DNA of 64,000 bases from an uncultured Gemmatimonadales bacterium (GCA_963795085.1 CAWCFX010000002.1:160001-224000); one strand, 5' to 3'. Positions 28,816-43,753 are shown, counted from the stretch's first letter. Numbers and translations: made by a program. The notes: generated by a model from the letters alone, not told the origin.

Positions 28816-30036
28816 GTGGGAGCTACCTCGATTGTACCTGCACGGCTGGCCGCCCAGCATGGGGACTATGGCATTCACCTTGCCGCCCAGGCCGTCTTGG
28901 TCGCGACCCGCGTTGACCCGGTTCCGGGAGGTACCCGCCTGGAGGAAACCCGGGTGGTCCAGCCCGTGGTCATGCTGCGGGCCCATGTACTGGGCGGCCG
29001 GATTCAATTGAGCGGCGTGGTAAACCTGGAGGGATGGACCATCCCCGAGGGAGAACTCACGCCGGGCGCCTTTGGAGAGGGATACGTCGACCGCCGCCAC
29101 CCGCACACCTACTTCCACGAACTGATGGTATCGGGGACCGACCTCCTGGGTCGGCTGGACGGGAGACTTCGTCTCTCCCTGAGCGCCGGGAAGGGCTTTG
29201 CCACCTTCGGTACCGACGACCCCATGAGCCGGCCGCCGGTCCGCTACCCGGTCAACCACCACTTCAGCCAGATCCTGGAGCGGGCGGTAGGCGCGGCCGG
29301 TGCGGCCTACGGCCCTCTGATGCTCGAAGCCTCGCTGTTCAACGGGGACGAGCCGGAGCACCCCGATCAGTGGCCGCTTCTCGACCGGTTCGGCGATTCC
29401 TGGGCGGCCCGGCTGACCGTGTTCCCCCTGCGCGGGTTGGAGGTGCAGGGCTCGCGCGCCACCGTGTTCTCGCCGGAGCATCGGCCCGGGGCCGGACTCG
29501 AAGTCAGCAAACGCAGTGTCTCGGTGCGCTATGCAGAGGCGGTTGCCGGCCTCCCGGTGTACGTGCTGGCCGAATGGTCCGAGTCCTCGGAGGCGGACCG
29601 GTTCTTCGTGTTTGATTCCTACCTGGTTGAGCTGCAACTGAGCCCGGGCCGGCACCGGGCCTATGCCCGCGCCGAGCGGACCGAACGCCCCGAGGAATTC
29701 CGGACCCTGAGCCGGTTTCGCACGGTGCGCCCCCACATGGAGAATACCCTCATCGGGATCACCAGCTGGAACCTGCAGACCATCGGCTACGGACTGGCCG
29801 CCGGCCCGCTGTGGGGAGGGCTCACCATTGAACCGTTCGGCGAGATCACCCATGCCACGGTGTCCAGGGTAGGGCGGGGGCTGTTTCGCCCCGCGCAGCA
29901 CTACGGCGAGACCACCATCTGGGCGCTTTCTGCGGGGATCCGCATCGACTGGCGCATGCGGGGTCACCGCATGGGCCGGTACGGGGTGGCCGCTCCCCCC
30001 CTCACGCTCTCCCATCACCTGGATCAACCCATATGA
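28816..30036 (+). CDS. Exported hypothetical protein, possible outer-membrane beta-barrel with His-rich motifs
   Basis: Signal-like LRLTAAVLFVGATSIVPARLAAQ (true start may be CTG 28789); DRRHPHTYFHEL, VNHHF; alternating beta-strand pattern ending ...LSAGIRIDW. Confidence 0.6.
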   Translation: MGATSIVPARLAAQHGDYGIHLAAQAVLVATRVDPVPGGTRLEETRVVQPVVMLRAHVLGGRIQLSGVVNLEGWTIPEGELTPGAFGEGYVDRRHPHTYFHELMVSGTDLLGRLDGRLRLSLSAGKGFATFGTDDPMSRPPVRYPVNHHFSQILERAVGAAGAAYGPLMLEASLFNGDEPEHPDQWPLLDRFGDSWAARLTVFPLRGLEVQGSRATVFSPEHRPGAGLEVSKRSVSVRYAEAVAGLPVYVLAEWSESSEADRFFVFDSYLVELQLSPGRHRAYARAERTERPEEFRTLSRFRTVRPHMENTLIGITSWNLQTIGYGLAAGPLWGGLTIEPFGEITHATVSRVGRGLFRPAQHYGETTIWALSAGIRIDWRMRGHRMGRYGVAAPPLTLSHHLDQPI

Positions 30037-31811
30037 AGCGCATCACGTTCCTGATCTCCATGGGGCTGCTGGGCAGCCTCGCGTGCGGCGGGGGAGACTC
30101 CGGCAGCGGGCCAGACCCCGAGCCGGCCGGGCCCCGGCTCGCGGTAGCAGGCGGGAACCAGCAGACTGACACGGTGGGACACGTCCTGAACCTCCCGCTC
30201 ACCGTCGTCCTCGAAGACACCCTGGGGCAGCCGATGGCCGGAGTGGTCGTGGAGTGGAGTGTCGTGACCGGAGCCGGGACCGTCACCCCGCGGTCGGCAG
30301 TGACCGGCAGTGATGGCCGGGCGGCGGCGGACTACACCCTCGGGCCCTTGGTCGTCGCCAACTCGGTGCGTGCCTTCAGCGCCGAGGCGGTGTTCCCGGT
30401 GTTCTTTACCGAGAACCCCGTCAACGACGTCCCCTCCCAGTTGATCAGGGCCGCCGGCGACAGCCAGTATTCGGATATCGGCGTGGCCACGGTGACCCAA
30501 TACAGTGTCAAGGTGGCCGACCAGTACGGTAACGCGGTTCCCCAGGCGACCGTCCAGTGGACACCCGCCTCCGGCCAGGGATCGGTCTCGGTGGCGACCT
30601 CGGTCTCTGATGCGGCCGGCATCGCGAGAACCCGCCATACGCCCGCGGTGGCAGGAACGAACGTCGTGACCGCTTCTCCGGTCGGCTTTACCGGTGCGCC
30701 AGTCACCTTTCTCACTCTCGGGGTCCTGCCGCCTGTGCTCATGGCCGAGGTCCCGGTACCGCCGAACTACGGTAGCCACGACACCTTCGTCCGTGACGGG
30801 ATCGCCTTTCACTGTGCCTGGAATACCGGGGTGATCATTCTCGACGTGGGCAATGGTATCCGGGGCGGAAGCCCCTCCAACCCGGTGGAAATCAGCCGGC
30901 TGATCACCGCCGACCATGGTATCCCGGGCGGCTCCGCAGTTCACAATGCCTGGTGGTTTCACAACCCGGTCACCGGTGAGAAGCGATACCTGTTCATCGG
31001 CCAGGAGGGATTAGGGGTCAACGGAGGGAACTCGTCCGGCGACATTCACATCGTCGACGTGTCGAACCTGGCCCAACCGGTCGAGGTGGGCTACTACACG
31101 CTCCCCGGAGCCGGGGTGCATAATTTCTGGATGGACGAAGCCAACCAGGTGCTGTACGCCGCGTTCTATGCCGGGGGGGTGGTGGCGCTCGACGTCTCGG
31201 GGACGCTGCAGGGCAATATCGCCAACCGGCGGATCGCCCGGATCCAGCCTGCCGGCCCGGGCAATACGCTGACCTGGGGCGTCCAGCTCTACCAGGGTTC
31301 ACTCTATGCGTCTGACATGATCAACGGATTCTACCAGCTCAAGCTCAACGGGCTGGTGTTTTCCGTGGCGGCCGGCGGGAACAACATCGACCCGGCGCAA
31401 GGCATCAGCACGGACCTCTGGGTGGCGAACGGGTATGCGTACACCGGGTTTTCCGGGGGGCGCAATTCCAAGGTGCTCGTGTGGCGGCTGGATCCATCCG
31501 GCGCCCCGGTCCTCGTGAACCAGATCATACCGCCGGCCGGGGTCTATTCGCTGAGCGACGTCGAGGTCAGCCCCAGTGGCCGCCTCCTGATGTTTTCCAC
31601 GGAGGGCGGGGTGAACGCAGGGTATTATTTCTATAATCTCAGCGACCCGGCCAATCCCCGGTTCGTATCCCGGTACGTGGTGTCCAATGGAACCGCCGGG
31701 ATTCACACCGCGACCTACGGAACCGTCAACGGTCGCCTCTACGCTTTCGGGTCGAAGAACCCCTCGGGGCCAGCTATGCAGATCCTCGATGTCACCTCAC
31801 TGGATTTCTGA
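30033..31811 (+). CDS. Lipoprotein with Ig-like domains and LVIVD-like beta-propeller
   Basis: Lipobox SLA-C; Ig-like repeats (GNQQTDTVG, GDSQYS); GVIILDV, DIHIVDVSN, GVVALDV, QILDVT repeats. Confidence 0.8.
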   Translation: MKRITFLISMGLLGSLACGGGDSGSGPDPEPAGPRLAVAGGNQQTDTVGHVLNLPLTVVLEDTLGQPMAGVVVEWSVVTGAGTVTPRSAVTGSDGRAAADYTLGPLVVANSVRAFSAEAVFPVFFTENPVNDVPSQLIRAAGDSQYSDIGVATVTQYSVKVADQYGNAVPQATVQWTPASGQGSVSVATSVSDAAGIARTRHTPAVAGTNVVTASPVGFTGAPVTFLTLGVLPPVLMAEVPVPPNYGSHDTFVRDGIAFHCAWNTGVIILDVGNGIRGGSPSNPVEISRLITADHGIPGGSAVHNAWWFHNPVTGEKRYLFIGQEGLGVNGGNSSGDIHIVDVSNLAQPVEVGYYTLPGAGVHNFWMDEANQVLYAAFYAGGVVALDVSGTLQGNIANRRIARIQPAGPGNTLTWGVQLYQGSLYASDMINGFYQLKLNGLVFSVAAGGNNIDPAQGISTDLWVANGYAYTGFSGGRNSKVLVWRLDPSGAPVLVNQIIPPAGVYSLSDVEVSPSGRLLMFSTEGGVNAGYYFYNLSDPANPRFVSRYVVSNGTAGIHTATYGTVNGRLYAFGSKNPSGPAMQILDVTSLDF

Positions 31812-33580
31812 TGCTCCCTGGCACCTCCCGCCCTGGCCAGCCCCGGTACCTGCTGGATTCTGTTCGCTTCCGGCTGGTTCCGGCAGCCGTCCTGTTCGCC
31901 GCCGCTCTCCACCTGTCGTCCTGTGGTGACGGCCATGGACCCGACCAGCGGGTCGCGTCCATCGTCGTCAGTCCGCCCAACGTGGATCTCACGGTCGGCA
32001 CCAGTCTCCAGTTCGCCGCGGCCGCGCTGGATGAAAGCGGCCATCTGATTCCCGGCACCACCTTCACCTGGGTTTCCACGGTGCCGGCGACGGCGACCAT
32101 CGACGGTTCCGGGCTGGCATTCGCCCAGGCAGTGGGGACGACGACCATCGAGGCGAGCGCCGGGGGCGTCACCGGTTCGACTTCCCTCGCCGTGGTGGTG
32201 ACCGTCCAGGCGGGACCGACTCTCACCGCGGTGGGGGGACGCCTCCAGCGCGCGCCGTCCTCCTCCATGCTGCCGGTTCCCTATGTCGTGGAAGCACGGG
32301 ACGGGTCCACTCCGCTCCCCAACGTGGAGATATTGTGGACGGTCGAGAGCGGGGGGGGGACGGTCGCCCAGAGCTCTTCGTTTACGGGAAGCGACGGACG
32401 GGCGAGCATCCTTCATACCCTCGGGCCGGTGCTCGGAGTGCAACAGGTGCAGGCCCGCGCTCCCTCCCTGGCCCCCGCGGACAGCAACAACAGGAATGTG
32501 GCCTTCAGCGCGACGGCTCTCGCGCCGGGCGGCATCGTCCCGGTGGCCAGCGTGGCGATTCCTCCGAATTACGGAATTCACGACACCTTCGTGCGTGAAG
32601 GCATTGCCTTCGTGTTCGCGTGGGACAGCGGGGTCCGGATCTTCGACGTGGGCAACGGCATCCGGGGAGGCAGCCCCTCCAACCCGGTGCTGGTCTCCCG
32701 GGTCGTCACCCATGGGGGGCAAGCCCATAACGGGTGGTGGTTTCACAATCCAAACACCCAGGAGAAGAAGTACCTGTTCGTCGGCGAAGAAGGCCCCGGC
32801 CTGATCGGTAGCTCGTCCTCCGGCGATATCCACGTGATTGATGTCTCCAACCTGGCCGCGCCGCTGGAAGTCGCCTCCTTCACAGTGGCGGGCGCCGGGG
32901 CCCACAACTTCTGGATGGACGAGGCCGCCCAGATTCTCTACGCCGCGTTCTACAACGGGGGCGTGGTCTCAATTGATGTCTCGGGCACCCTCAGCGGCAA
33001 CCTCGCCAGCCGGGAAATCGACCGGCTGGTGCCGGCATCCGGCTCCTACATCTGGGGGGTACAACTGTTCAACGGCTCCGTCTACGCCAGCGACATGGTG
33101 AACGGGTTTTGGCAACTTTCGACCACCGGAGGAAACCTGAGTATCGCCGCGGGTGGTGGCAACGTGCCGGAACGGTTCACATCCGACCTGTGGGTCCATG
33201 GCACCCATGCCTACAGCGGGACCTGGGGCAACCGCGGCGCCCAGGGCAATGTGGTGAAGATCTGGTCACTCAATGGGACCGGAGCGCCGGCGCTTGCCGA
33301 TTCCGTCATCATCCCCGCGATCAGCACGGTCAGCGACGTGGAGGTCAGCGCCGACGGCAGCGTGCTCATGGTGAGCACGGAGGGTGGCAGCGGCGACGGC
33401 TTTCAGTTCTACAGCCTGGCCAACCCGGCCAGCCCGGCCTTTCTGAACCAGCACCTGGTGGGGACCGGCATCCACACCACGACGTTCGGGTACATTGGGG
33501 GCCGGACCTACGCCTTCGGGGCCAAGAACCCGGGGAGCCCCGAACTGGTTGTTCTCGATGTCACCGGTCTGTTTCCCTGA
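31811..33580 (+). CDS. Paralogous Ig-like/LVIVD-like lipoprotein
   Basis: Lipobox LSS-C; IPPNYGIHDTFVREGIAF, HNGWWFHNP, HNFWMDE match the preceding gene. Confidence 0.8.
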   Translation: MLPGTSRPGQPRYLLDSVRFRLVPAAVLFAAALHLSSCGDGHGPDQRVASIVVSPPNVDLTVGTSLQFAAAALDESGHLIPGTTFTWVSTVPATATIDGSGLAFAQAVGTTTIEASAGGVTGSTSLAVVVTVQAGPTLTAVGGRLQRAPSSSMLPVPYVVEARDGSTPLPNVEILWTVESGGGTVAQSSSFTGSDGRASILHTLGPVLGVQQVQARAPSLAPADSNNRNVAFSATALAPGGIVPVASVAIPPNYGIHDTFVREGIAFVFAWDSGVRIFDVGNGIRGGSPSNPVLVSRVVTHGGQAHNGWWFHNPNTQEKKYLFVGEEGPGLIGSSSSGDIHVIDVSNLAAPLEVASFTVAGAGAHNFWMDEAAQILYAAFYNGGVVSIDVSGTLSGNLASREIDRLVPASGSYIWGVQLFNGSVYASDMVNGFWQLSTTGGNLSIAAGGGNVPERFTSDLWVHGTHAYSGTWGNRGAQGNVVKIWSLNGTGAPALADSVIIPAISTVSDVEVSADGSVLMVSTEGGSGDGFQFYSLANPASPAFLNQHLVGTGIHTTTFGYIGGRTYAFGAKNPGSPELVVLDVTGLFP

Positions 33581-33591
33581 TCCCCGCCTCC

Positions 33592-33876
33592 ATGCCCGTC
33601 GTCCTCCAGCGGGATTCCGCGTTTACCCTGAGCCCGGCCGTCCGGGGACGGCAGCTGGATAACGAGCTGATCCTGCTGGACCTTGGCAAGGGGGAGTACT
33701 TCAGCCTGAACGAGAGCGGCGCCGCCGTCTGGGCCTGCCTGGAGCGCGGCATGGCTCTCGGCGCTATTGACGAAGCGATGGCCGGCTGGCCGGTGGCGCC
33801 GGATCAGCGGTGGGAGATGATCACCGCCATCGTGCTCGAGCTTCGGAGCCGGGGACTGCTGGAGCCCGCCGGGTGA
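33592..33876 (+). CDS. PqqD-family RiPP recognition element (lasso B1/E protein)
   Basis: 94 aa: RQLDNELILLDL..GEYFSLNESGAAVW..L...LRSRGLL; ATG lies inside ORF 33109..33876. Confidence 0.9.
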   Translation: MPVVLQRDSAFTLSPAVRGRQLDNELILLDLGKGEYFSLNESGAAVWACLERGMALGAIDEAMAGWPVAPDQRWEMITAIVLELRSRGLLEPAG

Positions 33877-35351
33877 CAGGGCCGGCGGCCTTGGCCGTCC
33901 TGGTTCACGATCCCCGGGTGCGGGAATTCACGCCTGCCACCCTCGCCGAGCTCCGGGTCACCGGCTGGGCGCGTCTCCCCGATGGCGATATCCGGCTCCA
34001 ATCCGATCCAGCCGCCACCCGGCCATTCTGTTACCGGATGCTTGGCCGGACCCTCCACCTCGCCTGCTATCCCGGCGACCTGGCCCGCCTTGGTCCCCCC
34101 CCCGAACTCGACTGGACCACGCTCGCGGGCCTGCCGCGGTTCCGGTTTCCGGACGATGGCGCCACGGCTTTTGCCGGTATCCACCGACTGGCCGCAGGCA
34201 CCACGACGACCATCGCGCCGGATGGCGGCACCCGTTCGCATCGCTGGTGGGAGCTGCCCCCCGAGCCGTCATCGTCCGCCAAGCCGGATCTATTCGGAGC
34301 CCTGGTGCAACAGTGCGCCGGCCAGATCCAGGGCCGGCAGTGCGCCATCCTGCTGAGCGGGGGCCTGGATTCCTCCGCCATCGCGGCCGCGGCGGTGGCA
34401 GCTGCCCGGGCAGGCGGCGGCCCCGATCCGATCCTTGCTTCGCTCGTTTATCCCGGATTGCCCTGCGACGAAGACCTTACCCAGGAGGCCATCGCACGGC
34501 ACTACGGGCTTACGCGGGTCACGGTCAACCCGGTAGGCCGCCCGGTCTGGCCCGGAGCCCTGGGCACGGTCCACTCGCGGCTGGCCCCGGTCGTGGATAC
34601 TCAGTCGGCAGCCATCGGTCAGCTCTTCGAGCAACTGGAGGCCGCCGGATGCCGGGTCGTGCTCACCGGCCTGGGTGGGGATGTCCTGTTTCGCGGCATC
34701 GGGCTGGAAGGGAGCCTGCTGCGGCAGGGCAGACTCCTGGCGATACATCGTCACTTCCGGGGAATTTCCCGGGCCCTGCCGGTCTCGGTGCCAAGGCTCT
34801 GGTGGGCCGGTGTTCTCCGGCCCCTCGCCACCGGACGCCGGGGCCCCGGGCTTTCCCGCGCGGAGGTCCTGCGGGCAGGGAGCTCGGTCCGCAGTACCCT
34901 GATCCGCAACCTCGCGGCCGGCGGTACCGGGTGGTTGACCGAAGCGGTGGAACAATCCGGTAACCATCGCCTGGCCCTGGAGAGTCCGTTCTACGGCGCC
35001 GCCTTTCTTGACCAGTACTCCCGGCTGACCCAGCAGGATTTCGCGTCGAGCGCCTCCCACAAGGGAATCCTTCGCGAGATGATCCGGCCGCACCTGCCCG
35101 CTGCGGTGGTGAACCGCGTCAGGAAGCCGAACTTTCTTGATTATCATGCCACCTGGCTCCATCGGGAGCGCAGTTCCCTCGCGGCTCGCTATCGCGAAGT
35201 GCGGCCGATGGCTCCCGCCTCCATTGACATGCCGGCGGATATTAGCCGGGCCCTCAACGCCACCAGCGGCTCGGACGGGTTCTCCAGCTCCTGGATGAGT
35301 TTGACGATGCTCGAGTTCCTGGCGGCCTGGAACTTGAGGGTCAACCCTTGA
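33873..35351 (+). CDS. Asparagine-synthetase-like lasso cyclase (C protein)
   Basis: LLSGGLDSS, CDE, VLTGLGGD, PFY, KGILRE...HLP..V.NR.RK; no N-terminal Cys glutaminase; GTGA-coupled to the RRE. Confidence 0.85.
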   Translation: MTGPAALAVLVHDPRVREFTPATLAELRVTGWARLPDGDIRLQSDPAATRPFCYRMLGRTLHLACYPGDLARLGPPPELDWTTLAGLPRFRFPDDGATAFAGIHRLAAGTTTTIAPDGGTRSHRWWELPPEPSSSAKPDLFGALVQQCAGQIQGRQCAILLSGGLDSSAIAAAAVAAARAGGGPDPILASLVYPGLPCDEDLTQEAIARHYGLTRVTVNPVGRPVWPGALGTVHSRLAPVVDTQSAAIGQLFEQLEAAGCRVVLTGLGGDVLFRGIGLEGSLLRQGRLLAIHRHFRGISRALPVSVPRLWWAGVLRPLATGRRGPGLSRAEVLRAGSSVRSTLIRNLAAGGTGWLTEAVEQSGNHRLALESPFYGAAFLDQYSRLTQQDFASSASHKGILREMIRPHLPAAVVNRVRKPNFLDYHATWLHRERSSLAARYREVRPMAPASIDMPADISRALNATSGSDGFSSSWMSLTMLEFLAAWNLRVNP

Positions 35352-35417
35352 CGCCCCGTGCCGGGACGGGCAGCTTTCATTCACCCCTGGAAAAACCGAG
35401 TACCTCAGGAGATCGCC

Positions 35418-35558
35418 ATGGATCGGGAGCGCCCCGCCACGACGGCCAGTATGCCCAGGTTCGAACCCCCCAGGCTGACTCCGCTGGGGAGTGTCACCCG
35501 GGTGACCCAGGCCTTCGAACCTGGCACCAATACCGACTTCACGATGTCGTCGTTCTAG
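35418..35558 (+). CDS. Lasso peptide precursor (46 aa); predicted core AFEPGTNTDFTMSSF
   Basis: AGGAGA RBS; leader FEPPRLTPLGSVTRVT-Q fits (Y/F)xxPxLxxxGxxxxxT; core Ala1 with Asp9. Confidence 0.85.
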   Translation: MDRERPATTASMPRFEPPRLTPLGSVTRVTQAFEPGTNTDFTMSSF

Positions 35559-35656
35559 GCGGAGAGCTCAGCGACCGGGCCGCACCGACTGACGCAACCT
35601 CATTCTGCCGTGCCGCCGACTGAGCCGGACGGCGCCTTCAACCAGACTCCCTCCTG

Positions 35657-36502
35657 ATGCCTCCCGGCATCATCACGCCAACTCTCGCGATCGCCGGGTG
35701 GGAACGGATAGCCCGGCATTCCAGCCTGGCCATCACGGTCCGGTCTGGAACACCTCGCGGAATTGCCGTGCCACCGGGGGTAATTAACCGGGTGGACGGC
35801 GGCTGGGCGTTCACAACCGCCGACGGGCAATGGTACCGAGTCCGGGGACCGGCGCCCGTCGCCGTGGAGGGGTACCCGCTGGAGCAGGCGACCGAACCGG
35901 AATCAGTGCTCCGCCTGTTCGGGCCGGTTACCGCCCTGGTGGCCCAGGTCAGCGGGTGCCAGCCACTTCACGCCGCGGGATTGATGCGGGGAGGGAAGGT
36001 CCTGGCTCTCTGTGCCGAGTCTGGCCAGGGCAAATCCACGCTGGCGGCACTGGCGGCGGCCCACGGATGGCAGGTCCAGGGCGATGACCTGCTCGCGGTG
36101 GACCGATCGGGTATGGTGTTGCCACTACCCGGCTCACTCCGCGTCCGTCCCGAACTGGCGCCGCCGGGATGCACCTCGGCCTGGCATCTGCCCGATGGCC
36201 GGGAATGGTATCCGCTTCCGGCGCCCGCCCATTCCGCCCAACTCGGGGGGATTGTCCGTCTCGCCAGGGGCAGGGAGATCCTGCTGCGCACGCTTCGCGG
36301 CGCCGAACGGCTGGCCACTGTCGCCGTCGCCGCCTTGGCCCCATTCTTCGGCCATGTCGAGAACGATCCGCATCCCGCCCGGCTGCTGGACCTGGCCGGG
36401 GCCACTCCAGCCTGGCATCTCACCGTGCCTGAAGGGCTGACCCGCCTGCGCGAGTCCTGGGGCATATTGGATGGCCTGCTCACCGGTCTCCTCGGCGAAT
36501 GA
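35657..36502 (+). CDS. HPr-kinase-like P-loop kinase (lasso peptide kinase type)
   Basis: PLHAA, AESGQGKSTLA, GDD. Confidence 0.85.
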   Translation: MPPGIITPTLAIAGWERIARHSSLAITVRSGTPRGIAVPPGVINRVDGGWAFTTADGQWYRVRGPAPVAVEGYPLEQATEPESVLRLFGPVTALVAQVSGCQPLHAAGLMRGGKVLALCAESGQGKSTLAALAAAHGWQVQGDDLLAVDRSGMVLPLPGSLRVRPELAPPGCTSAWHLPDGREWYPLPAPAHSAQLGGIVRLARGREILLRTLRGAERLATVAVAALAPFFGHVENDPHPARLLDLAGATPAWHLTVPEGLTRLRESWGILDGLLTGLLGE

Positions 36503-38289
36503 GCACGCCGGACGCGGTCGGGCAACGCCGGCCGAGGGGACGGGACCTGGTCATGCTCGGGCTGGCGGCGGGACTTCTCACCGGGCTGGGCGAAACGGTC
36601 CTCCTGCTGGTGAAACGGTTCCTCCGGGGCCGATTCATCACGGTTGGGGAGCACGCGCTCTGGATGGCGCCGGTCGCGGACGCGCTCCTCTTCACGCTAC
36701 TCGCCATCATCTTCGTGGCGCTTACCCGCCGGGTCAGCGTCGAGCGGCGGGACCGCCTCTTTGCCACCATGCTGGTGGCCCTGGGCCTCACGGCGATGCT
36801 GACCCTGTGGGGCCGTTTCCATTGGGTCGCCACGATCCTGCTCAGCCTCGGCATCGCGGTGCGATTGAGCGGACGGATCGCTCCCCGGCTGGATGCCCTG
36901 ATGAGGGCGGGGCGGGCGGCCATGCCGGGGATGGCGGTCCTGGTCCTGCTCACGGCGGCCGGCGTCGCCGGGGAAGCCTGGTGGAAGGAGCGTAAGAGCC
37001 TCGAGGCGACCCCCGCGGGATCCCAGCCTAATGTCCTGCTGATCATCCTGGACACCGTTCGCAGCCTGAGTATGGGCCTGTACGGACATGCCCGGGACAA
37101 CACACCCGAGCTGGCTCGCTGGGCCGCCCGGGGCACCGTCTTCGATCACGCCTTCTCCTCGTCCTCCTGGACCCTTCCCTCTCATGCCGCCATGTTCACC
37201 GGCCGGTGGCAAACCGATCTCACGGTCCGATTCAACCGCCCCCTCGACAGCACCTGGCCTACCCTGGCTGAATTCCTGGGGGACCGCGGGTATGCGACGG
37301 GGGGGTTCGTGGCCAACCTGATCTACACGCCCCGGGAATCCGGCCTGGCCCGCGGGTTCGGCCACTACGAGGATTTCGGCCTCAACGTCCGGGTGTTCAT
37401 TCGCAGTGCCACCCTGCTGCGGAAGCTGGTGGACCGGCCCCGGTTCCGCTGGGCCGCCCGGCCCCGGCACCCCATGCTGTGGAAGACGGCCCGGGAAGTC
37501 TCCGGGGGAGCGCTCGACTGGATCGACCGGCAGGAGGAGGACCGGCCCTGGTTCGCCTTCCTCAACTACATGGAGGCGCATGATCCCTGGTATGTCCCGG
37601 CTCCCTTCGATACCCTCTACGGGAATGGGGCCCTTCATATCTCATGGGCGGAGATGACCGCGACGCCGCTGCCCCCGCCGGTTGCCCTGGTCCGCTTCGC
37701 CGAGGGCTACGATGCGGCCATCGCCTATCTGGATCAGGAGATCGGCAGCCTGCTTGACACGCTCGAGCGGCGCGGGCGGCTTCGCAATACGATCGTCGTG
37801 ATTACCTCGGATCACGGCGAAGAGATCGGCGAGCACCAGTTCCTGGGGCATGGCGCCAGCCTCTACCGGCCGACCGTGGAGGTCCCCCTGATCGTAATCG
37901 CGCCCGGCTGCGCAATGTCCGGAGGCCGGGCACCGGATCCGGTATCGCTCCGGGACTTCGCCGCGACCATCATGGACCTCACCGGTATGCCGGAGCATCC
38001 TTTTCCCGGGGCTTCCTTCGCGGCCCTGGCCTGTCCCGGCAACGACACCCAGGCCTATCCCCGGCCGGTCTTCTCTGTGCTTCAGGAGGCCCGGGGACGC
38101 GCCAACCCTACCCTGGTCTCGGTGGTCCAGGATTCTTTCCGGTTTATCGGGGATGGACAGGGCAGGGGGGAACTCTACAGTTTTTACGGCGATCCGCTGG
38201 AACAACACGACCTGGCCGCCCAGCCGATGCTGGGTCCTGCCTTGCTCCGGCTCCAGACCCTGGCCGACTCACTCCGAAAACCTCACTGA
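36499..38289 (+). CDS. Membrane-anchored sulfatase-like (alkaline phosphatase superfamily) hydrolase/transferase
   Basis: About 5 N-terminal TM segments; PNVLLIILDTVR, WTLPSHAAMFTG, NYMEAHDPW, TSDHGE, GHG. Confidence 0.88.
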   Translation: MSTPDAVGQRRPRGRDLVMLGLAAGLLTGLGETVLLLVKRFLRGRFITVGEHALWMAPVADALLFTLLAIIFVALTRRVSVERRDRLFATMLVALGLTAMLTLWGRFHWVATILLSLGIAVRLSGRIAPRLDALMRAGRAAMPGMAVLVLLTAAGVAGEAWWKERKSLEATPAGSQPNVLLIILDTVRSLSMGLYGHARDNTPELARWAARGTVFDHAFSSSSWTLPSHAAMFTGRWQTDLTVRFNRPLDSTWPTLAEFLGDRGYATGGFVANLIYTPRESGLARGFGHYEDFGLNVRVFIRSATLLRKLVDRPRFRWAARPRHPMLWKTAREVSGGALDWIDRQEEDRPWFAFLNYMEAHDPWYVPAPFDTLYGNGALHISWAEMTATPLPPPVALVRFAEGYDAAIAYLDQEIGSLLDTLERRGRLRNTIVVITSDHGEEIGEHQFLGHGASLYRPTVEVPLIVIAPGCAMSGGRAPDPVSLRDFAATIMDLTGMPEHPFPGASFAALACPGNDTQAYPRPVFSVLQEARGRANPTLVSVVQDSFRFIGDGQGRGELYSFYGDPLEQHDLAAQPMLGPALLRLQTLADSLRKPH

Positions 38290-38777
38290 TGGAAACCATC
38301 AACCGCCGATCCGCCCAGCACATCACCCGGAGTGGATTGTTCCCGCTTCGCTGTGCCGTCCTGAACCTCCCGTACGGGCCCCTGGCGGTATTCAGCCCGT
38401 CCGAAGGCCTCAAGCGAGTATTGGTTGAGACCGCCGGCCTGCGGGACGTCGAGATCCTGGGCGACGGTACCTTCGGGCTGACTCGGGCCGGGAAGGTTCT
38501 CCTGCCTGACCCCACCCCGCTGACCGCCCTGGTCAATCTGGTCGAAGGGGACCATTGCGCCCTGGGGCGGGTCGGTGGGCAGCGACGGCTCTCGATGCTC
38601 CTTGCGGCGGGATCGACCGGCGAGCTGGAGCCGGTTGCGGGCGATCCCTGGTACGACTCGCTCCTCGACATCACGGCCTCGCTCCCGGTCTGGGAGATGG
38701 TGCTTCCGCCCGAGCGCCGGGACATGCGCGCGGCCTGGCCCGAGATCGCCATGTTGCTGGCCGAATCGGCGTCATGA
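38289..38777 (+). CDS. Degenerate (pseudokinase) paralog of the 35657-36502 kinase
   Basis: Two ungapped blocks align by eye with the kinase (18/57 and 22/80 identities); catalytic motifs replaced. Confidence 0.7.
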   Translation: METINRRSAQHITRSGLFPLRCAVLNLPYGPLAVFSPSEGLKRVLVETAGLRDVEILGDGTFGLTRAGKVLLPDPTPLTALVNLVEGDHCALGRVGGQRRLSMLLAAGSTGELEPVAGDPWYDSLLDITASLPVWEMVLPPERRDMRAAWPEIAMLLAESAS

Positions 38778-39802
38778 CGGCCGAGCCCGCGCCGCTGGCC
38801 TGGGTGATCCTCATGGCCGCGGGGCGGGAGGTGGCGGTGCCCTCCGCCGAGTCGTGGCAGACACATCTGGAATGCCTCCGCCGCAGCCGCCTGGTTCCGC
38901 TGGCCGCCCACCTGCTCCAATCCAGATTCCAGGAACTGCACCCGGACACCCGGCGCTATCTCGAGGCCGCCACGATGATGGCGGAATCAAACGTCGAGCA
39001 GGCGGCCAGCGCACTGGTGGAGATTGCCGCCCGGTTCGACCGGCGTGCCATCCGCTGGGTGGTGCTCAAGGGGTATCCGCTGGCCGCTCGGCTCTATCCG
39101 AGACCTTCCTGCCGGCCCAGTGGTGACATAGACCTGCTGGTTGACGAGCCGTCGCTGGCGGCTGCGGAGGAGGATTTAGTGGAAGCGGGGTACCGGGCGG
39201 AGGGAGCGGACCGTTCCTACCATCTCCGGCTGGTCCGGAAGGGTCAAACGGGGACCCAGGTCGTCGAGCTTCACCATCGGGCCGCGCCCGCCGCCCACGG
39301 AGGGCCCCGGACGGCAGACATTCTGGCCCACCGGCGGGCCTTCCCGATCTCCGGGTCCACCGGGTGGCTGCCTTCGGCCGGGCATGAGGTCGATCTATTG
39401 ATCCGCCACTACCTGCGGCACGCGGGCCACCAGGCCATCTGGCTGGTGGACCTCCTGCTGCTTTCGGCCGGGACCCCGCTGTGGCACCGGCTGGGATCGC
39501 CCATTGGCGATGACCTCGAGCGGGTGGGGCTACCCCGCCTGGTTGACGGGCCGGCCCGCTATTCCCTGCGCCCACTGCGCCGCTGGATGGCCCGGCGAAC
39601 TTTCGAGGAGCGGCACACGGCGCGGCACATCTCGCCGGTCGGCACGGCGCTCGCGCTGGCCGAGTCGCCCGGGGCGGCATCCCGGATGCTGGCGAGGCTG
39701 GCGTGGCCAAGCCAGCCTACCCCGCGTTGGTTCGCCACCAGTCACACCAGTTGGGGCCGCTACACCTGGCGGATCCGGCGCTTGTTCAAGCTGGGAGGCT
39801 GA
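38774..39802 (+). CDS. Nucleotidyltransferase family protein (NTP_transf_5-like)
   Basis: VVLKG..LA.RLYP....RPSGDIDLLV, VELHH; ATGA-coupled. Confidence 0.88.
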   Translation: MTAEPAPLAWVILMAAGREVAVPSAESWQTHLECLRRSRLVPLAAHLLQSRFQELHPDTRRYLEAATMMAESNVEQAASALVEIAARFDRRAIRWVVLKGYPLAARLYPRPSCRPSGDIDLLVDEPSLAAAEEDLVEAGYRAEGADRSYHLRLVRKGQTGTQVVELHHRAAPAAHGGPRTADILAHRRAFPISGSTGWLPSAGHEVDLLIRHYLRHAGHQAIWLVDLLLLSAGTPLWHRLGSPIGDDLERVGLPRLVDGPARYSLRPLRRWMARRTFEERHTARHISPVGTALALAESPGAASRMLARLAWPSQPTPRWFATSHTSWGRYTWRIRRLFKLGG

Positions 39803-39806
39803 TCGG

Positions 39807-41795
39807 TCAGGGCTGCGGTCCTCCGGCCGGCGCCCGTGGCCACCCGTTGTTCTCCCGCCGGACTTCGGGGAACGCCCGGTCCGGGTCGATGCGCACCGAG
39901 GTCACGCGGGTGGGACCCGGTATCGCGGCCACGTAGGTGTCGCCGTAGTACCAGATCTCGACCGGCAGCGTCACCCGGCGGCTGAATCCGTCGTCCATCA
40001 TCAGGTCCATCACCACCGGCACCGGCATCGGGCCGATCTTCCGCAGGTAGATCAGCGAGAGGGGCTGCCCGGTGCTGTCGGGCGTCCGGACCGAGTCCAC
40101 GGCGATGTCCATCGTCTCCGTCGTGTAGAAGTAACTCCGCCAGAACCAGCTCAGGTCCTCCCCTGCGCCGTCCTCGATCGTCCTGAAAAAATCCGCCGGC
40201 GTGGGGTGCCGGTACTGCCAGCGCCGGATGAACTCCTTGAACGCAGGATCGAAACGATCCGGGCCGAGGATGTAGTCCCGGAGCAGCCGAAGCCCCAGCC
40301 CGGGTTTGTTGTAGGCTACCATGCCGAGGCCGGAAGGGTCTGTCCGGTCCGCGGGGGTAGCGATGGGCTGTTCCCGGCCGCTCAGCGCGAACTGGATCTG
40401 GAGATCGGTGTTGGCCCGCCGGTTGAACCTCCCGGGATACTTCGCCTCCCAGTTGTAGTAGTTCATGAACGTGTTGAACCCCTCGTCCATCCAGGGGTAG
40501 AGTCGTTCGTTGTTCCCGACCAGCATGGGAAACCAGGTGTGCCCGAATTCGTGATCGGTGACGCTGTAGAGCGCTTCGGCCCCATCGCGGTTGCAGAAGA
40601 TGATCATGGGATATTCCATGCCGCCCTCCCGCCCGTTGATGTTGATGGCCATGGGGTAGGGGTAGGGCCACCACTGCTCCGAGTAGCGCTCGATGGCGGT
40701 CTTGCCGTACTGGGTCGCCAGGTGCCAGGTGGAGTCCGCCGAAGGCGGATACAGGCTCATCACCAGGACGTTGCCACCGTTGGCACGGGCGGCGTCCCAC
40801 ACGAAGTGAGTGGCCGCGGCCCAGGCGAAGTCGCGCACACTGTCGGCCACGAATCGCCAGGTCAGCGTCCCGGCTCGGGAGGCGGGACGGGTGGCCGGAT
40901 CCCGGACTTCGTCCTTCCCCCGAATGATCACGGTGGTGTCGCTGGCCCGGGCGGCTGCCAGCCGGGTCCGCTGGACCGGGGTCAGCACCGCTACCGGGTT
41001 CTGCAGGGTCCCGGTCGCGGCCACGATCATACTGGCCGGGACGGTGAGACTGACGTCGAACTTTCCGTACTCGAGATAGAACTCGCCATTGCCCATGTAT
41101 GGCTCGGTATTCCAGCCCCGGATATCGTCGTAGACCGCGAGCCGGGGATACCACTGGGCCACCTCGTAGATGACGTCTCCATCTACGGTGACGATCCCCA
41201 TCCGGCTGTTGATCTCTTCAAGGAAAGGGAAATACCACTCCACGTCGAACACCACCTTGCCGCCGGGCGGGAGCGGCCGGGCCAGGTCCACCCGCATCAG
41301 GGTCCCGTTGATCCGGTAGCGGAGTTCGGAGGCCCGCTGGGCCGGCCGCCCCGGGGCCGCCGCCAGCGCCGGCTGGGAGACGCCGCCAATAGTGACTCCG
41401 CCGTCGGCCCCGCCGGTGCCGAAGCGCGCGTCCGGCGGAACCACCAGGCTGCCCCGGCTGTCGGAGCGGAACAGGTTCTGGTCCAGTTGCAGCCAGAGGT
41501 ATCGGAGCGTATCGGGCGAATGGTTGCTGTAGGTGATCCGCTCCTCTCCCGTGAGGATCTTCCGGGCGGTATCGAGGGTGGCCCGAATGACGTAGTCCAC
41601 CCGCTGCTGCCAGTACTCCCGTCCCGGCGCCCCGCTCCCGGTGCGGTACCGGTTGGGGGCCGGGAGATCGAGCCGGCGGAAGGGCGAACCATCGGCCGTG
41701 GGTTCGGGCACCGGGGCGCTGGCGGTGCGCGGCTGCTGGGCCGCGAGCGGGAGAGCCAGGAAAGCCAGCAGCAGACAAGACGGGGAGGTACGCAC
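39807..41795 (-). CDS. M1 family zinc metallopeptidase, exported
   Basis: GGMEYP, HEFGHTWF...WMDEG (HEXXH-X18-E); signal peptide; GTG start overlapping upstream TAG with AAGGAG RBS. Confidence 0.93.
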   Translation of the reverse strand: MRTSPSCLLLAFLALPLAAQQPRTASAPVPEPTADGSPFRRLDLPAPNRYRTGSGAPGREYWQQRVDYVIRATLDTARKILTGEERITYSNHSPDTLRYLWLQLDQNLFRSDSRGSLVVPPDARFGTGGADGGVTIGGVSQPALAAAPGRPAQRASELRYRINGTLMRVDLARPLPPGGKVVFDVEWYFPFLEEINSRMGIVTVDGDVIYEVAQWYPRLAVYDDIRGWNTEPYMGNGEFYLEYGKFDVSLTVPASMIVAATGTLQNPVAVLTPVQRTRLAAARASDTTVIIRGKDEVRDPATRPASRAGTLTWRFVADSVRDFAWAAATHFVWDAARANGGNVLVMSLYPPSADSTWHLATQYGKTAIERYSEQWWPYPYPMAININGREGGMEYPMIIFCNRDGAEALYSVTDHEFGHTWFPMLVGNNERLYPWMDEGFNTFMNYYNWEAKYPGRFNRRANTDLQIQFALSGREQPIATPADRTDPSGLGMVAYNKPGLGLRLLRDYILGPDRFDPAFKEFIRRWQYRHPTPADFFRTIEDGAGEDLSWFWRSYFYTTETMDIAVDSVRTPDSTGQPLSLIYLRKIGPMPVPVVMDLMMDDGFSRRVTLPVEIWYYGDTYVAAIPGPTRVTSVRIDPDRAFPEVRRENNGWPRAPAGGPQP

Positions 41796-43753
41796 TACGG
41801 GGCTCCTTTCCACTCGTTGTTGGCCGGGTTCACGTCCGGCAGCATGCCATCCGCATTGACGGTGGCCGACCGGACCGGTGCCGACGTCGGCACGCTGGCG
41901 ATGTACCGGTCGCCGTTATACCAGATCTCCACCGGGAACCGGACCACCTCGGTGGATCCATCCTGCAGCACCATCGTGAGGGTCACCGGCATCACCTGCC
42001 CGCCCAGGTTGCGGAGGGTGACGCGGGCCAGGTTGCGGCCGCCCGCGGCCCGCTGGGTTACCGACTCGATCCCCTGGTCCAGTGCAGCAGTGGTAAAGAT
42101 CCATCCCCGCCAGAACCAGGACAGGTCGCGGCCGGAGACGTCCTCCATGGTTCTGATGAAATCCGCCGGGTAGGGGTGCTTGAAGGCCCAGCGGCGGATG
42201 TACTCCCGGAACGCCGCGTCGAACACGGTGGAATCGAGCACCTGGTGGCGCAGCGTGAGCAGCATCAGCGACGGCTTGATGTAGGCCAGGCTTCCGAGGT
42301 TGTTGTCGCCCCGGTACCGGTTGGCGGGCGTGATCATGGGCTGGGCGGCGGGGAGCCGGTCGTTCTGCAGGACGAACGCCAGCTCGCCCTGGCGGACCTG
42401 GGAATCATCGCGGGAGAAGTATCCCTCCTCCGCGAAGGTGTTGATGAAGGTGTTGAACCCCTCGTCCATCCAGGCGAAGCGCCGCTCATCGCTGCCCACG
42501 ATCATCGGGAACCAGTTATGTCCAATCTCGTGGGTCACGACGCTGAAGACCTCCGCCAGGCTCCCGGCATCCGATTCCATGGCGAGCATGGGGTACTCCA
42601 TGCCGGAGACCGGCCCCTCGACCGCGGAGATCTGCGGATAGGGATAGCGGAACCAGCGGGTGCTGTACTCCATGATCGAATAGCGGGACTGGCGCGCCAC
42701 GTCCGACCAGTTGGCCCGCGCCGCCGGCCGGTAGTAGGCATGGGCCAGCACCCCGTCCCAGCCGGCCGCATCCCAGAGATACTCCGGAGAGGCGGCCCAG
42801 GCCACGTCCCGGACATTGGCTGCCCGGAACTTCCAGGTGAGGGTGCCGCCGGCGCGGGGCCGTGCCGTTCCGGCGCGAAGATCCTGCTCGCGGATGATCG
42901 GCACCGCGGTATCCGATGTCCGGGCCACCGCGAGCCGGGATCGCTGGTCCGCGGTCAGGACTTCGAGCGGGTTCGCAAGCGTCCCGGTGCCGGCGACGAT
43001 GAATCCCGCGGGGAGGGTTACCTGGTAGTCAATGTCGCCGTACTCGAGGTAGAACTCGCCCTGGCCCAGGTAGGGATCGGTGCTCCAGCCCTCGACATCG
43101 TCGTACACCGCCATCCGGGGATACCACTGGGCCATTTCGTAGAGGCTGCCTTCCCGCCCCATCCGGTCAGCGCCGTGCTCGGGAATGTTGAAGTGGTAGC
43201 GAATCGCCAGCGAGGTGGCCCGCCCGGGCGCCACCGGCGTCGCGAGCGCGACCCGCATCATGGTGCCGTCCACCCAGGTGGTGACCGGCAGGCGGGCCGC
43301 CGCGGTCCGGGGCCGGTTTGCACCGCCGGTGAGCGCGGGCGTCGGTACCTGGACGATGTCTTCGATTGTGTAGCCGCCCTCGAAGCCGGCGCCGCCGAAC
43401 CGGCTGGCCGAGGCATTCAGCAGGGCGCCGGCACTCCCGGGCCGAAACAGGTTCTGGTCCAGCTGTAACCAGAGCTGCGCCAGGGTGTCCGGTGAATTGT
43501 TGGTGTAGCGGATGGTGACGGACCCGCTGAGGCGCTGGGTTGCCGTATCCAGGGTGACGGCGATCGAATAGTCGGCGCGCTGCTGCCAATACCCCGGTCC
43601 GGGAGCGCCGTTAGGCCGCCGGGCCAGGCCCGGGGCGGAAAGGGGCAGGGGACTGAAGATCCCGGTATCGGCGACCACGGACTTCGAGCTGGTCTGTTGG
43701 GCATGCACGGGGTAACCGAGCACCAGGAGCGGGAGCAGCCATAACGGGCGCAC
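41795..43753 (-). CDS. M1 family zinc metallopeptidase, exported (paralog)
   Basis: SGMEYP, HEIGHNWF...WMDEG; signal peptide ...VHA-QQ; YWQQR.DY. Confidence 0.93.
   Translation of the reverse strand: MRPLWLLPLLVLGYPVHAQQTSSKSVVADTGIFSPLPLSAPGLARRPNGAPGPGYWQQRADYSIAVTLDTATQRLSGSVTIRYTNNSPDTLAQLWLQLDQNLFRPGSAGALLNASASRFGGAGFEGGYTIEDIVQVPTPALTGGANRPRTAAARLPVTTWVDGTMMRVALATPVAPGRATSLAIRYHFNIPEHGADRMGREGSLYEMAQWYPRMAVYDDVEGWSTDPYLGQGEFYLEYGDIDYQVTLPAGFIVAGTGTLANPLEVLTADQRSRLAVARTSDTAVPIIREQDLRAGTARPRAGGTLTWKFRAANVRDVAWAASPEYLWDAAGWDGVLAHAYYRPAARANWSDVARQSRYSIMEYSTRWFRYPYPQISAVEGPVSGMEYPMLAMESDAGSLAEVFSVVTHEIGHNWFPMIVGSDERRFAWMDEGFNTFINTFAEEGYFSRDDSQVRQGELAFVLQNDRLPAAQPMITPANRYRGDNNLGSLAYIKPSLMLLTLRHQVLDSTVFDAAFREYIRRWAFKHPYPADFIRTMEDVSGRDLSWFWRGWIFTTAALDQGIESVTQRAAGGRNLARVTLRNLGGQVMPVTLTMVLQDGSTEVVRFPVEIWYNGDRYIASVPTSAPVRSATVNADGMLPDVNPANNEWKGAP

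Follow-up and report, generated by a model that had tools for sequence, protein, structure and literature searches.

Several described peptide systems share enzymes with the locus studied here. In the pseudomycoidin (psm) pathway of Bacillus pseudomycoides, according to the available text of PMC6993621, a lasso cyclase (C), a precursor (A), an HPrK-like kinase (K), a discrete RRE and a DxD-containing nucleotidyltransferase (N) of the PF14907 type occur together with an Ala1-Asp9 ring; the cluster encodes its own B2 protease and an ABC exporter, and the precursor ends in Ser. Paeninodin-type systems (pade, ThcoK and SyanK), as far as they are described in the available parts of PMC9266682 and PMC8498205, have a split B protein and a kinase with a His-Lys-Asp-Asp set that targets a C-terminal Ser (PMC9266682). 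Among Gram-negative lasso clusters, bsf of Bradymonas sediminis has both K and N; as described in the available text, its B2 and exporter are in the cluster, its leader has Ile-2, and its kinase BsfK, aided by the RRE, phosphorylates an internal residue, ring Ser3 (PMC10368454). The systems for linear polyphosphorylated peptides (LPP) in Bacillota combine an RRE, an HprK-like kinase and an NTP transferase, often in capsule loci, with a SipW-like peptidase and, in the description available, no cyclase (PMC13381572). The same source describes the role of paeninodin-type peptides as unknown and their clusters as often lying beside capsule genes. For Gemmatimonads, one paper gives only counts of lasso BGCs, in 29 MAGs.

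The locus lies in a 64,000-nucleotide stretch of DNA (the window) from an uncultured Gemmatimonadales bacterium, whose 3.89-Mb genome we label G000. Seven ORFs, all on the + strand, occupy positions 33592-39802 (Table 1). The junction gaps, in gene order from the RRE to the nucleotidyltransferase, are -4, +66, +98, -4, -1 and -4, and third-position GC ranges from 0.76 to 0.86 across all seven genes. A sequence-only reading of this DNA had described seven genes in one orientation, overlapping at four junctions, in a probable Gemmatimonadota host; the coordinates and gaps agree with the former, and the labels of the closest homologues with the latter. The profiles that it proposed to search (PF05402, PF00733, PF14907 and PF00884) all score above cut-off. 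The cluster shares with psm C, A, K, a discrete RRE and a DxD-containing N, and its predicted ring is likewise Ala1-Asp9. It differs from psm, as described in PMC6993621, in that B2 is probably provided in trans, no exporter is present, the Ser is followed by Phe in a 6-residue tail, and a sulfatase-fold enzyme (S) and a pseudokinase (pK) are added.

Table 1. Genes of the cluster, with positions counted from the first letter of the window
Gene product	Position	Strand	Length (aa)	Supporting features
RRE / B1 (PqqD family)	33592-33876	+	94	PF05402 E 3e-9, above cut-off
Predicted lasso cyclase C	33873-35351	+	492	GTG start; PF00733; SGGLDSS and GLGGD motifs
Predicted precursor A	35418-35558	+	46	ATG start behind CAGGAG; NF033521 18.7 bits vs cut-off 19
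HPrK-like precursor kinase K	35657-36502	+	281	TIGR04352 E 1e-8, below cut-off
Sulfatase-fold enzyme S	36499-38289	+	596	PF00884 E 8e-48; five TM helices
Pseudokinase pK	38289-38777	+	162	tblastn to cluster kinases E 1e-5 to 1e-8
NTP_transf_5 nucleotidyltransferase N, PsmN-like	38774-39802	+	342	PF14907 E 3e-37

The cyclase subfamily is present in 7 of 401 genomes of the host's family. We compared nine loci from eight cluster genomes, leaving aside L036, which nearly duplicates L035 and is truncated within N, and L037, which is truncated within K; the nine-precursor set likewise leaves out L036. Since all cluster genomes are kin, counts across these loci are not independent. The seven genes had been read as a set, yet they are not conserved as a unit: pK occurs in 1/9 loci and S in 7/9, and gene order varies. 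Across this small family the tailoring enzymes form a series: K only, K+N, K+N+S and K+N+S+S. The ORF lists of all nine loci contain no ABC exporter; G000 carries ABC transporters unlinked to the cluster. The cassette does not stand in a glycan locus; its neighbours are genes for LVIVD proteins and M1/M28 peptidases. No cassette gene lies within about 1.5 kb of 24 LVIVD loci in cluster-free genomes, a comparison that is uninformative as to whether S arrived with the cassette, because the S family is present in only 1 of these 24 genomes. A promoter and terminator scan of the locus gave signal at shuffle level. Every tree comes from a quick IQ-TREE run, with SH-aLRT as the sole measure of support. 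The genes, their motifs, and how these are conserved and distributed are read directly from sequence, and the chemistry of the product is predicted from them.

The predicted lasso core

The predicted leader of A carries F-17, P-14, L-12 and T-2, and the predicted core is AFEPGTNTDFTMSSF, with a ring from Ala1 to Asp9, Ser14 five residues past the acceptor, and an extra Phe15. This leader register and an acceptor at Asp8 or Asp9 are conserved in all nine precursors, as is a Ser at acceptor+5; all nine thus fit the lasso pattern of a [YFW]xxPxL leader, Thr-2 and Asp/Glu at core position 7-9. In five of the nine, including that of the window, Phe directly follows this Ser, which is therefore not C-terminal; the other four end in Ser, as described for paeninodin in the available texts (PMC9266682, PMC8498205), while the clade of the window has a penultimate Ser. 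The expectation of a modified C-terminal Ser thus fails for the window, whose core ends Ser-Phe. NF033521 matches 9/9 precursors, 3/9 at or above cut-off. Across the six frames of the 3.89-Mb genome, the combination of lasso leader and acceptor turns up a single time, at the precursor ORF, and each of the eight other loci has a corresponding peptide in this place; together these place the precursor beyond chance. Four DNA runs yielded only short, low-depth pieces, among them a 162-nt contig, possibly not independent, that equals the precursor region 35424-35585 without differences.

Is the Asn-synthetase homologue a lasso cyclase? It could instead be an EPS-type amidotransferase, with the short ORF incidental. 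The curated lasso HMM scores of A and C leave room for this: the precursor, cyclase and kinase of the window are all below NCBIfam cut-offs (NF033561 is the best match of C), and TIGR01536 matches 23/23 members of the cyclase subfamily. However, C is a shortened protein of the Asn-synthetase fold that lacks the N-terminal Cys, and no Cys lies within its first five residues. This Cys is absent from 15/15 subfamily members checked and from 119 of 121 long nearest representatives. In contrast, EPS-type amidotransferases (TIGR03108/AsnB) have a Cys2 glutaminase domain and are about 600-650 aa long. The model of C (pLDDT 92) has the AsnB/beta-lactam synthetase fold. No lasso-cyclase-titled entry is among the PDB fold matches listed, so structure cannot separate a lasso cyclase from AsnB, and we used the tree. 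In the tree, the cyclase clade (support 100) is separate from MCG-type AsnB (support 100). One match, in G101, was dropped as an MCG-type AsnB inside an EPS locus. The RRE is directly 5ʹ of the cyclase in every locus with that side visible, and it is the sole PqqD protein found in G000, G002, G060 and G074. Two outcomes that would have counted against a lasso pathway, grouping of the cyclase with EPS/AsnB enzymes and lack of a conserved precursor in homologous loci, were not observed. We therefore consider the amidotransferase explanation very improbable, and a lasso core highly probable.

The B2 leader peptidase

B2 is absent from every cluster, and no B2 match in any cluster genome falls inside the cluster. 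Nonetheless, six of the eight cluster genomes encode one stand-alone B2 elsewhere; in the other two, which are drafts 81% and 64% complete, none was found. In G000 this is the sole PF13471 match, on contig C6 (G000:C6:741729-742178, minus strand). All six orphan proteins score above the NF033537 cut-off and keep the catalytic Cys and His, and five of the genes are directly behind an M48 peptidase gene. Among the 401 genomes there are 64 B2-clade matches, 53 of them within 158 bp of a PqqD gene; the remaining 11 are the six orphans of the cluster genomes and five from genus g11. A complex model of RRE, precursor and B2 scored 0.74 (best control 0.19), with at least 72% contact agreement between runs and partner pLDDT of at least 75; the mark used was reached by 116/157 solved pairs and 2/215 mismatched pairs. 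The model docks B2 on the predicted cut site, with an interface that takes in residues 85-88 and 117-121 of B2 and 29-33 of the precursor, although resemblance to solved B1-B2 pairs may account for the pass.

An alternative explanation is that the orphan B2 is a remnant of the cyclase-free peptide-K-PqqD-B2-N cassette that is widespread in the host family, for which LPP is the nearest described analogue in the available text (PMC13381572); host proteases would then remove the leader, or the pathway is decaying. Consistent with this, the orphan B2s are homologous to the cassette B2s, pseudomycoidin was made in vivo without B1/B2 (PMC6993621, available text), and the G000 copy is missing some conserved C-terminal residues; it lacks the YLE motif and the Glu that follows HAW, both present in most of its relatives. 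However, tblastn found no cassette-type kinase or nucleotidyltransferase in G000, Cys and His are kept in 6/6 orphans, T-2 is kept in 9/9 precursors, and no non-cluster genome among the 401 has a B2 match at the M48 site. A single clade of orphan B2s is not supported: that of G053 nests with cassette-type B2s in a quick tree of 138 columns in which four rows are under half filled. We judge the remnant explanation improbable, and it is quite likely that the stand-alone B2 acts in trans for the cluster. A B2 encoded in trans is the most testable novelty of the locus. The cluster differs from LPP, which lacks a cyclase and uses a SipW-like peptidase, in having a cyclase and probably relying on a B2.

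Putative tailoring enzymes

By alignment, K keeps His, GxGKST and Asp-Asp, that is, the His-Lys-Asp-Asp set, in agreement with the kinase motifs described in the available texts of PMC9266682 and PMC10368454. N keeps DxD, with D118 and D120 invariant in the five sequences aligned. The pairing of kinase and nucleotidyltransferase known from pseudomycoidin is found here as had been proposed. The N orthologue of G053 adjoins a polysaccharide-biosynthesis gene. Phosphorylation of Ser by K is probable. The alignments also bear out a degenerate kinase paralogue: pK is a copy of the kinase C-terminal domain in which His is changed to Arg, Walker A is lost and Asp-Asp has become Asp-Gly. Two full-length homologues (65% and 48%) rule out a one-off pseudogene; the kinase tree does not resolve the parent of pK. 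We regard pK as accessory because it is present in one locus only.

S is most likely a group transferase and not a formylglycine sulfatase. Its model (pLDDT 84) has the sulfatase core and C-terminal sheet of the S1 formylglycine sulfatases, with top fold matches to 4uph, 7p24 and 4upl (TM 0.54-0.56). Unlike those enzymes, the S family has no [CS]xPxR; instead it has Thr-Leu/Phe-Pro-x-His, with Thr and His in 57/57 rows. Alignment to 4upi and 4uph puts Thr225 at the formylglycine position, with D185, E359, H361, D438, H439 and H451 as further residues; all of these except E359 are among the residues invariant, with Thr225, in 57/57 rows. Sulfate is our best guess for the group transferred because the S family tracks PAPS synthesis: CysD was found in 26 of the 40 genomes with the family and in 11 of the 161 without it; in 18 of those 26, CysD and a family member lie no more than 10 kb apart. 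A precedent by fold is provided by Agl30/Agl31 (VNG1056C/VNG1057C) of Halobacterium salinarum, alkaline-phosphatase/sulfatase-fold proteins for which genetics show sugar sulfation (PMC11980604, available text). Their best structural matches, 5G2U and 6HHM, are also among the fold matches of S, beside many other sulfatases. The likeness is one of fold, and Agl30/Agl31 differ from S in having an archaeal N-glycan substrate and one TM helix or none. Some Firmicutes clusters in the paeninodin comparison carry a putative sulfotransferase gene, with fold and product not given in the available text.

What is the substrate of S? The sequence-only reading counted S among the peptide tailoring enzymes. 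That role is uncertain, S being one of nine paralogues in G000, in a glycan- and PAPS-linked family, with a probably periplasmic active site, and we put action of S on the peptide product at somewhat below an even chance. S could be a passenger: a further copy from an enlarged family of glycan decorators, it would have landed next to the cassette and would work on sugars of EPS, LPS or another part of the envelope, the product being an ordinary phospho(glyco) lasso. The eight other G000 paralogues are 36-41% identical to S, and six of them belong to an exosortase/EPS locus that also has cysNC, cysQ and cysD. The seven other cluster genomes each have 4-12 family copies, those inspected mostly at glycan loci, and the 40 of 201 genomes with the family mostly lack the cluster. 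The loci of G053 and G074 lack S, and those paralogues of the two genomes that are in the tree all fall outside the lasso clades described below. The positive-inside count places the S domain in the periplasm for 45/52 rows, and the catalytic domain is probably periplasmic in a cluster without an exporter. PAPS is cytoplasmic. The frequent presence of paeninodin-type clusters in capsule loci, described in the available text of PMC13381572, also fits a passenger.

Against this, S is always with N in the same cassette in the seven loci that have it, is flanked by K and N within the operon in three genomes, and has shifted position within the cassette across genomes without being lost; most of its junctions fall between -4 and +25 nt. 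The cassette neighbours given above do not make a glycan locus. The ten lasso-linked copies fall into two clades (support 100 and 99) that include none of the other paralogues and join at a support of only 23, and this purity can be plain synteny because the PAPS-array paralogues also form position-specific clades. We give the passenger explanation, too, slightly less than an even chance.

A further alternative is that S acts on a phosphodiester: it would move an N-activated (nucleotide or lipid) phospho-lasso to an envelope glycan and so anchor the peptide at the cell surface, or cleave a Ser-phospho-sugar after export and so unmask the peptide. EptA, MCR and LtaS have a five-TM anchor, a Thr nucleophile and a metal-binding Asp/His set, with which the topology and residues of S fit; a Thr nucleophile with such an anchor is also reminiscent of NPP enzymes. 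In addition to its invariant residues, S has weak, sub-cut-off HMM matches to pEtN transferase profiles and to PF01663, and its top fold match, 4uph, is a phosphonate monoester hydrolase. A review, in its available text, leaves room for PsmN as nucleotidylation only, and the neighbour of N in G053 points the same way. On the other hand, the family tracks CysD, EptA/MCR/LtaS HMM scores are far below cut-off, and the fold, with its C-terminal sheet, is nearer to S1 sulfatases than to EptA/LtaS, which are absent from the fold matches listed. Action on a phosphodiester is unlikely.

Proposed pathway and its significance

On balance, we slightly favor a split, pseudomycoidin-type lasso pathway with B2 in trans and S as a likely transferase. 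By analogy with its family and in the complex model, the RRE would bind the FxxPxL leader. K would phosphorylate the acceptor+5 Ser on the linear precursor, at the penultimate Ser14 or alternatively at Ser13. The stand-alone B2 from another contig, recruited by the RRE, is modelled to cut between Gln-1 and Ala1. C would then close Ala1-Asp9 with the use of ATP and no glutamine, giving a 15-residue lasso with a predicted MH+ of 1633.684. N may put a sugar on the phosphate or activate the phosphate as a nucleotide, as for PsmN in the available text of PMC6993621, and pK would be a non-catalytic accessory. In the weakest step, S might add sulfate at the membrane, either on the sugar or on Ser/Thr13. 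More tentatively, and with rather less confidence, sequential action of K, N and S, with B2 in trans, could yield a phospho-glyco-sulfated lasso or a Ser-phosphodiester envelope tether and make S a new RiPP tailoring enzyme.

Which parts of this pathway are new? In a search of openly accessible literature, the papers listed included no lasso kinase that acts on a penultimate serine, no lasso cluster with a sulfatase, no sulfated lasso peptide and, in titles and abstract openings, no lasso B2 encoded elsewhere in the genome. Phosphate- or sugar-tagged lasso peptides are known; the distant leader protease may be new here, as may a possible sulfate added by a membrane enzyme, which we did not find described. 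Phosphorylation of a penultimate tail Ser would broaden the known site rules for the kinases. Should S prove a passenger, it would still hold that lasso clusters with an unlinked protease are overlooked, or marked as broken, by mining rules in which an in-cluster B2 is compulsory. The family series, from K alone to K+N+S+S and with either C-terminal Ser or Ser-Phe, lets the addition made by each enzyme be read off. If S does modify the product, this would be new RiPP tailoring chemistry, and the peptide would be the first substrate for a large unannotated family of Thr-“sulfatases” that databases label as hydrolases. Sequential action of K, N and S, if true, would tie paeninodin-type peptides to the chemistry of surface glycans and offer a testable explanation for the frequent capsule-locus neighborhood of such clusters.

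The lasso core and its surroundings

Judged from its sequences, the cluster is a lasso peptide pathway. Its seven co-oriented genes lie on the forward strand where the sequence-only reading had placed them, and their codon bias is normal; the successive gaps measure -4, +66, +98, -4, -1 and -4 nt. Pfam matches above cut-off were obtained for PqqD, Asn_synthase, Sulfatase and NTP_transf_5, and the NCBIfam lasso models (RRE, cyclase and leader) and the model for HprK-related kinases matched below their cut-offs. The modelled cyclase has an AsnB/beta-lactam synthetase fold (pLDDT 92) and lacks the glutaminase Cys; in a quick tree of 49 rows it forms its own clade, separate from MCG-type amidotransferases. 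All nine distinct precursors share F-17, P-14, L-12 and T-2, an Ala, Ser or Gly at core residue 1 and an acceptor Asp at core position 8 or 9. NF033521 matches all nine (three at or above cut-off), and the precursor pattern occurs once in the whole host genome, G000. Therefore, neither of two outcomes named beforehand as counter to lasso identity, a cyclase grouping with EPS-associated amidotransferases or loss of the precursor in homologous loci, was found.

The cyclase-subfamily profile (E<=1e-35) matched in 8 of 401 family genomes, with seven true members; the match in genome G101 was rejected as an ordinary AsnB. The eighth cluster genome, G001, is 64% complete and holds the downstream half of the cassette; two further occurrences come from metagenome loci L035/L036 and L037. 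The closest cyclase homologues (52–54% identity) are labelled Gemmatimonadota, in agreement with the proposed host.

The second LVIVD/Ig-domain gene ends 11 nt before the RRE gene, and given this gap the LVIVD genes and the cassette may be co-transcribed. The cassette lies downstream of an LVIVD gene wherever that side is visible; the LVIVD gene itself occurs in 95 of 201 family genomes. Since an M28 peptidase occupies the same flank in other genomes, the M1 and M28 peptidases appear to lie outside the cassette. The 406-aa protein also adjoins several related clusters.

Features of the window and of related loci
Feature	Location	Strand	Context
Conserved 406-aa protein, no Pfam match	window 28816-30036		between sdh genes and LVIVD genes
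Two tandem Ig/LVIVD-repeat (choice-of-anchor B-like) proteins	window 30033-33580		directly upstream of cluster
Two convergent M1-family peptidases	window 39807-43753	minus	downstream flank
Six tandem Thr-type sulfatase-fold genes, then cysNC, cysQ/APS-kinase fusion, cysD	L138:10659 to L139:7396 (G000:C6:525-542 kb)		downstream of exosortase/EPS locus
Non-coding, ~150 nt	L179:2312-2460 (G001)		between sulfatase-fold and nucleotidyltransferase genes
Nucleotidyltransferase orthologue, 43% identity	L228:181-1290 (G053)		outside cluster, before Polysacc_synt_2 gene
Cyclase-free cassettes (examples)	L146:8093-11046; L147:4799-9588		

Kinases and nucleotidyltransferase

The cluster would work like those for pseudomycoidin and of Bradymonas sediminis, but three tested features of that type are absent: it encodes neither a B2 protease nor an exporter, and its predicted core does not end in Ser. 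It also has two added genes. The kinase and nucleotidyltransferase expected from pseudomycoidin-type clusters are both present with their key motifs. The kinase retains the His, Walker A Lys and Asp-Asp described as essential in lasso kinases (PMC9266682, PMC10368454), and the nucleotidyltransferase retains the DxD motif that PsmN requires to put a hexose on the phosphate (PMC6993621).

In all nine precursors the last core Ser stands at position +5 from the acceptor Asp. Four precursors end with this Ser; in the other five, including that of the window, one Phe follows, unlike the C-terminal Ser that the sequence-only reading described for paeninodin/pseudomycoidin-type clusters. Kinases of the Ser-Phe group cluster together (support 90), and core position 13 is Ser or Thr in 5/5 of their precursors. 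Most simply, the kinases of both groups would target this last Ser, and the Ser-Phe clade would tolerate or need the extra residue.

The second kinase domain is indeed degenerate, without His, Walker A, Asp-Asp and the N-terminal ~90 residues, but it does not belong to a shared gene set. Its gene is coupled to its neighbours at both ends, it has two full-length homologues (65% and 48%), and in the Atlas it resembles ScmC-type clusters; because it is present in just one of nine loci, we regard it as accessory. At the corresponding place in G001, the non-coding stretch has stop codons in all three forward frames.

A probable leader protease encoded elsewhere

The one PqqD of G000 is located in the window; its one match to PF13471 follows an M48 peptidase gene on contig C6. 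Single stand-alone B2 genes occur in six of the eight cluster genomes, five at the M48 site and one (in G053) at a different site; B2 was not found in the other two, both incomplete drafts. The G053 nucleotidyltransferase orthologue also lies outside its cluster, and the pathway in that genome is therefore spread over three loci. All six B2 proteins keep Cys and His and pass NF033537. A profile built from them matches 64 of 401 genomes, in 53 of which no more than 158 bp separate B2 from a PqqD gene, in the loci examined as part of a different, cyclase-free cassette. The 11 exceptions are the six stand-alone copies and five genomes of one genus, g11.

When RRE, precursor and orphan B2 were modelled together as three chains, the complex scored 0.74 and the best control 0.19, with contact agreement of at least 72% and partner pLDDT of at least 75, a mark attained by 116/157 solved and 2/215 mismatched pairs. 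The interface takes in the loops of B2 that carry Cys and His, as well as precursor residues 29–33, which span the predicted cut. This pass may stem from likeness to solved B1-B2 pairs, without proving that this copy binds. We consider it quite probable that the cluster uses the orphan B2 in trans. However, the orphan B2s do not form one supported clade, the G000 copy has lost some conserved C-terminal residues and pseudomycoidin is made in vivo without B1/B2 (PMC6993621).

The common cyclase-free cassette (loci L090-L108 and L146-L148) encodes a short peptide, HPrK-like kinase, PqqD, B2, NTP_transf_5 and often an ABC transporter. The peptide has a KPFVAP-type leader and a Gly/His/Asn-rich tail, often with Ser at its end; cyclase and sulfatase-fold profiles found no match in three such regions of 16–18 kb. 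The cassette resembles the linear polyphosphorylated peptide family described in PMC13381572, but B2 replaces the SipW-like peptidase. In genus g11 (L111, L113, L116, L122, L142-L145), PqqD, kinase and nucleotidyltransferase genes share one site and B2 stands alone at another, beside TonB-receptor-like genes, a second, independent separation of B2.

The sulfatase-fold protein

What is the role of the membrane-anchored sulfatase-fold protein? It has four hydrophobic segments above threshold, with room for a fifth in the model, followed by the sulfatase-like domain, and charge bias favours an N-in/C-out topology in 45/52 rows of its family. Thr225 occupies the formylglycine position, which is Cys or Ser in S1 sulfatases, and is invariant in 57/57 members together with D185, H229, H361, D438, H439 and H451. 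In the window's clade each of the four members carries two Cys in this domain, which would suit a periplasmic disulfide.

CysD was found in 26/40 genomes with the family and 11/161 without, and in 18 of those 26 it is no more than 10 kb away from a family member, in a count that scored at most six copies per genome, had three coordinates added and includes related, non-independent genomes. Because of this association, reported sulfation of sugars by sulfatase-fold proteins in Halobacterium (PMC11980604) and putative sulfotransferase genes flanking some Firmicutes lasso clusters (PMC8498205), sulfate transfer is our best guess for the family's chemistry; the difficulty is that a PAPS-derived donor would have to reach a periplasmic domain. 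Alternatively, the family would transfer or hydrolyse phosphodiesters.

That this protein acts on the peptide product is a tentative proposal, held with somewhat less than even confidence. Its gene is present in 7/9 loci, always with the nucleotidyltransferase, with tight junctions, and in the order kinase–sulfatase-fold–nucleotidyltransferase in three and kinase–nucleotidyltransferase–sulfatase-fold in four; of the other two loci, one has kinase and nucleotidyltransferase and one kinase alone, with its nucleotidyltransferase orthologue beside a polysaccharide gene. The ten lasso-linked copies form two clades with none of the other 47 paralogues inside. However, array positions likewise form clean clades, eight further paralogues are encoded in G000 (six of them in the exosortase/EPS locus with cysNC, cysQ and cysD), the family occurs in 40/201 genomes, and an exporter is in none of the clusters; these observations count against a link with the peptide.

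Of the seven-gene subclass proposed in the sequence-only reading, the lasso core stands and the fixed seven-gene unit does not. The cassette should be restated as variable: RRE, cyclase, precursor and kinase, optional nucleotidyltransferase, sulfatase-fold protein and pseudokinase, plus a remote B2. In our search of the main texts of open-access papers, none described a lasso cluster that has such a sulfatase-fold enzyme or a remote B2. The cassette would have greater significance if the sulfatase-fold protein modifies or anchors the peptide.
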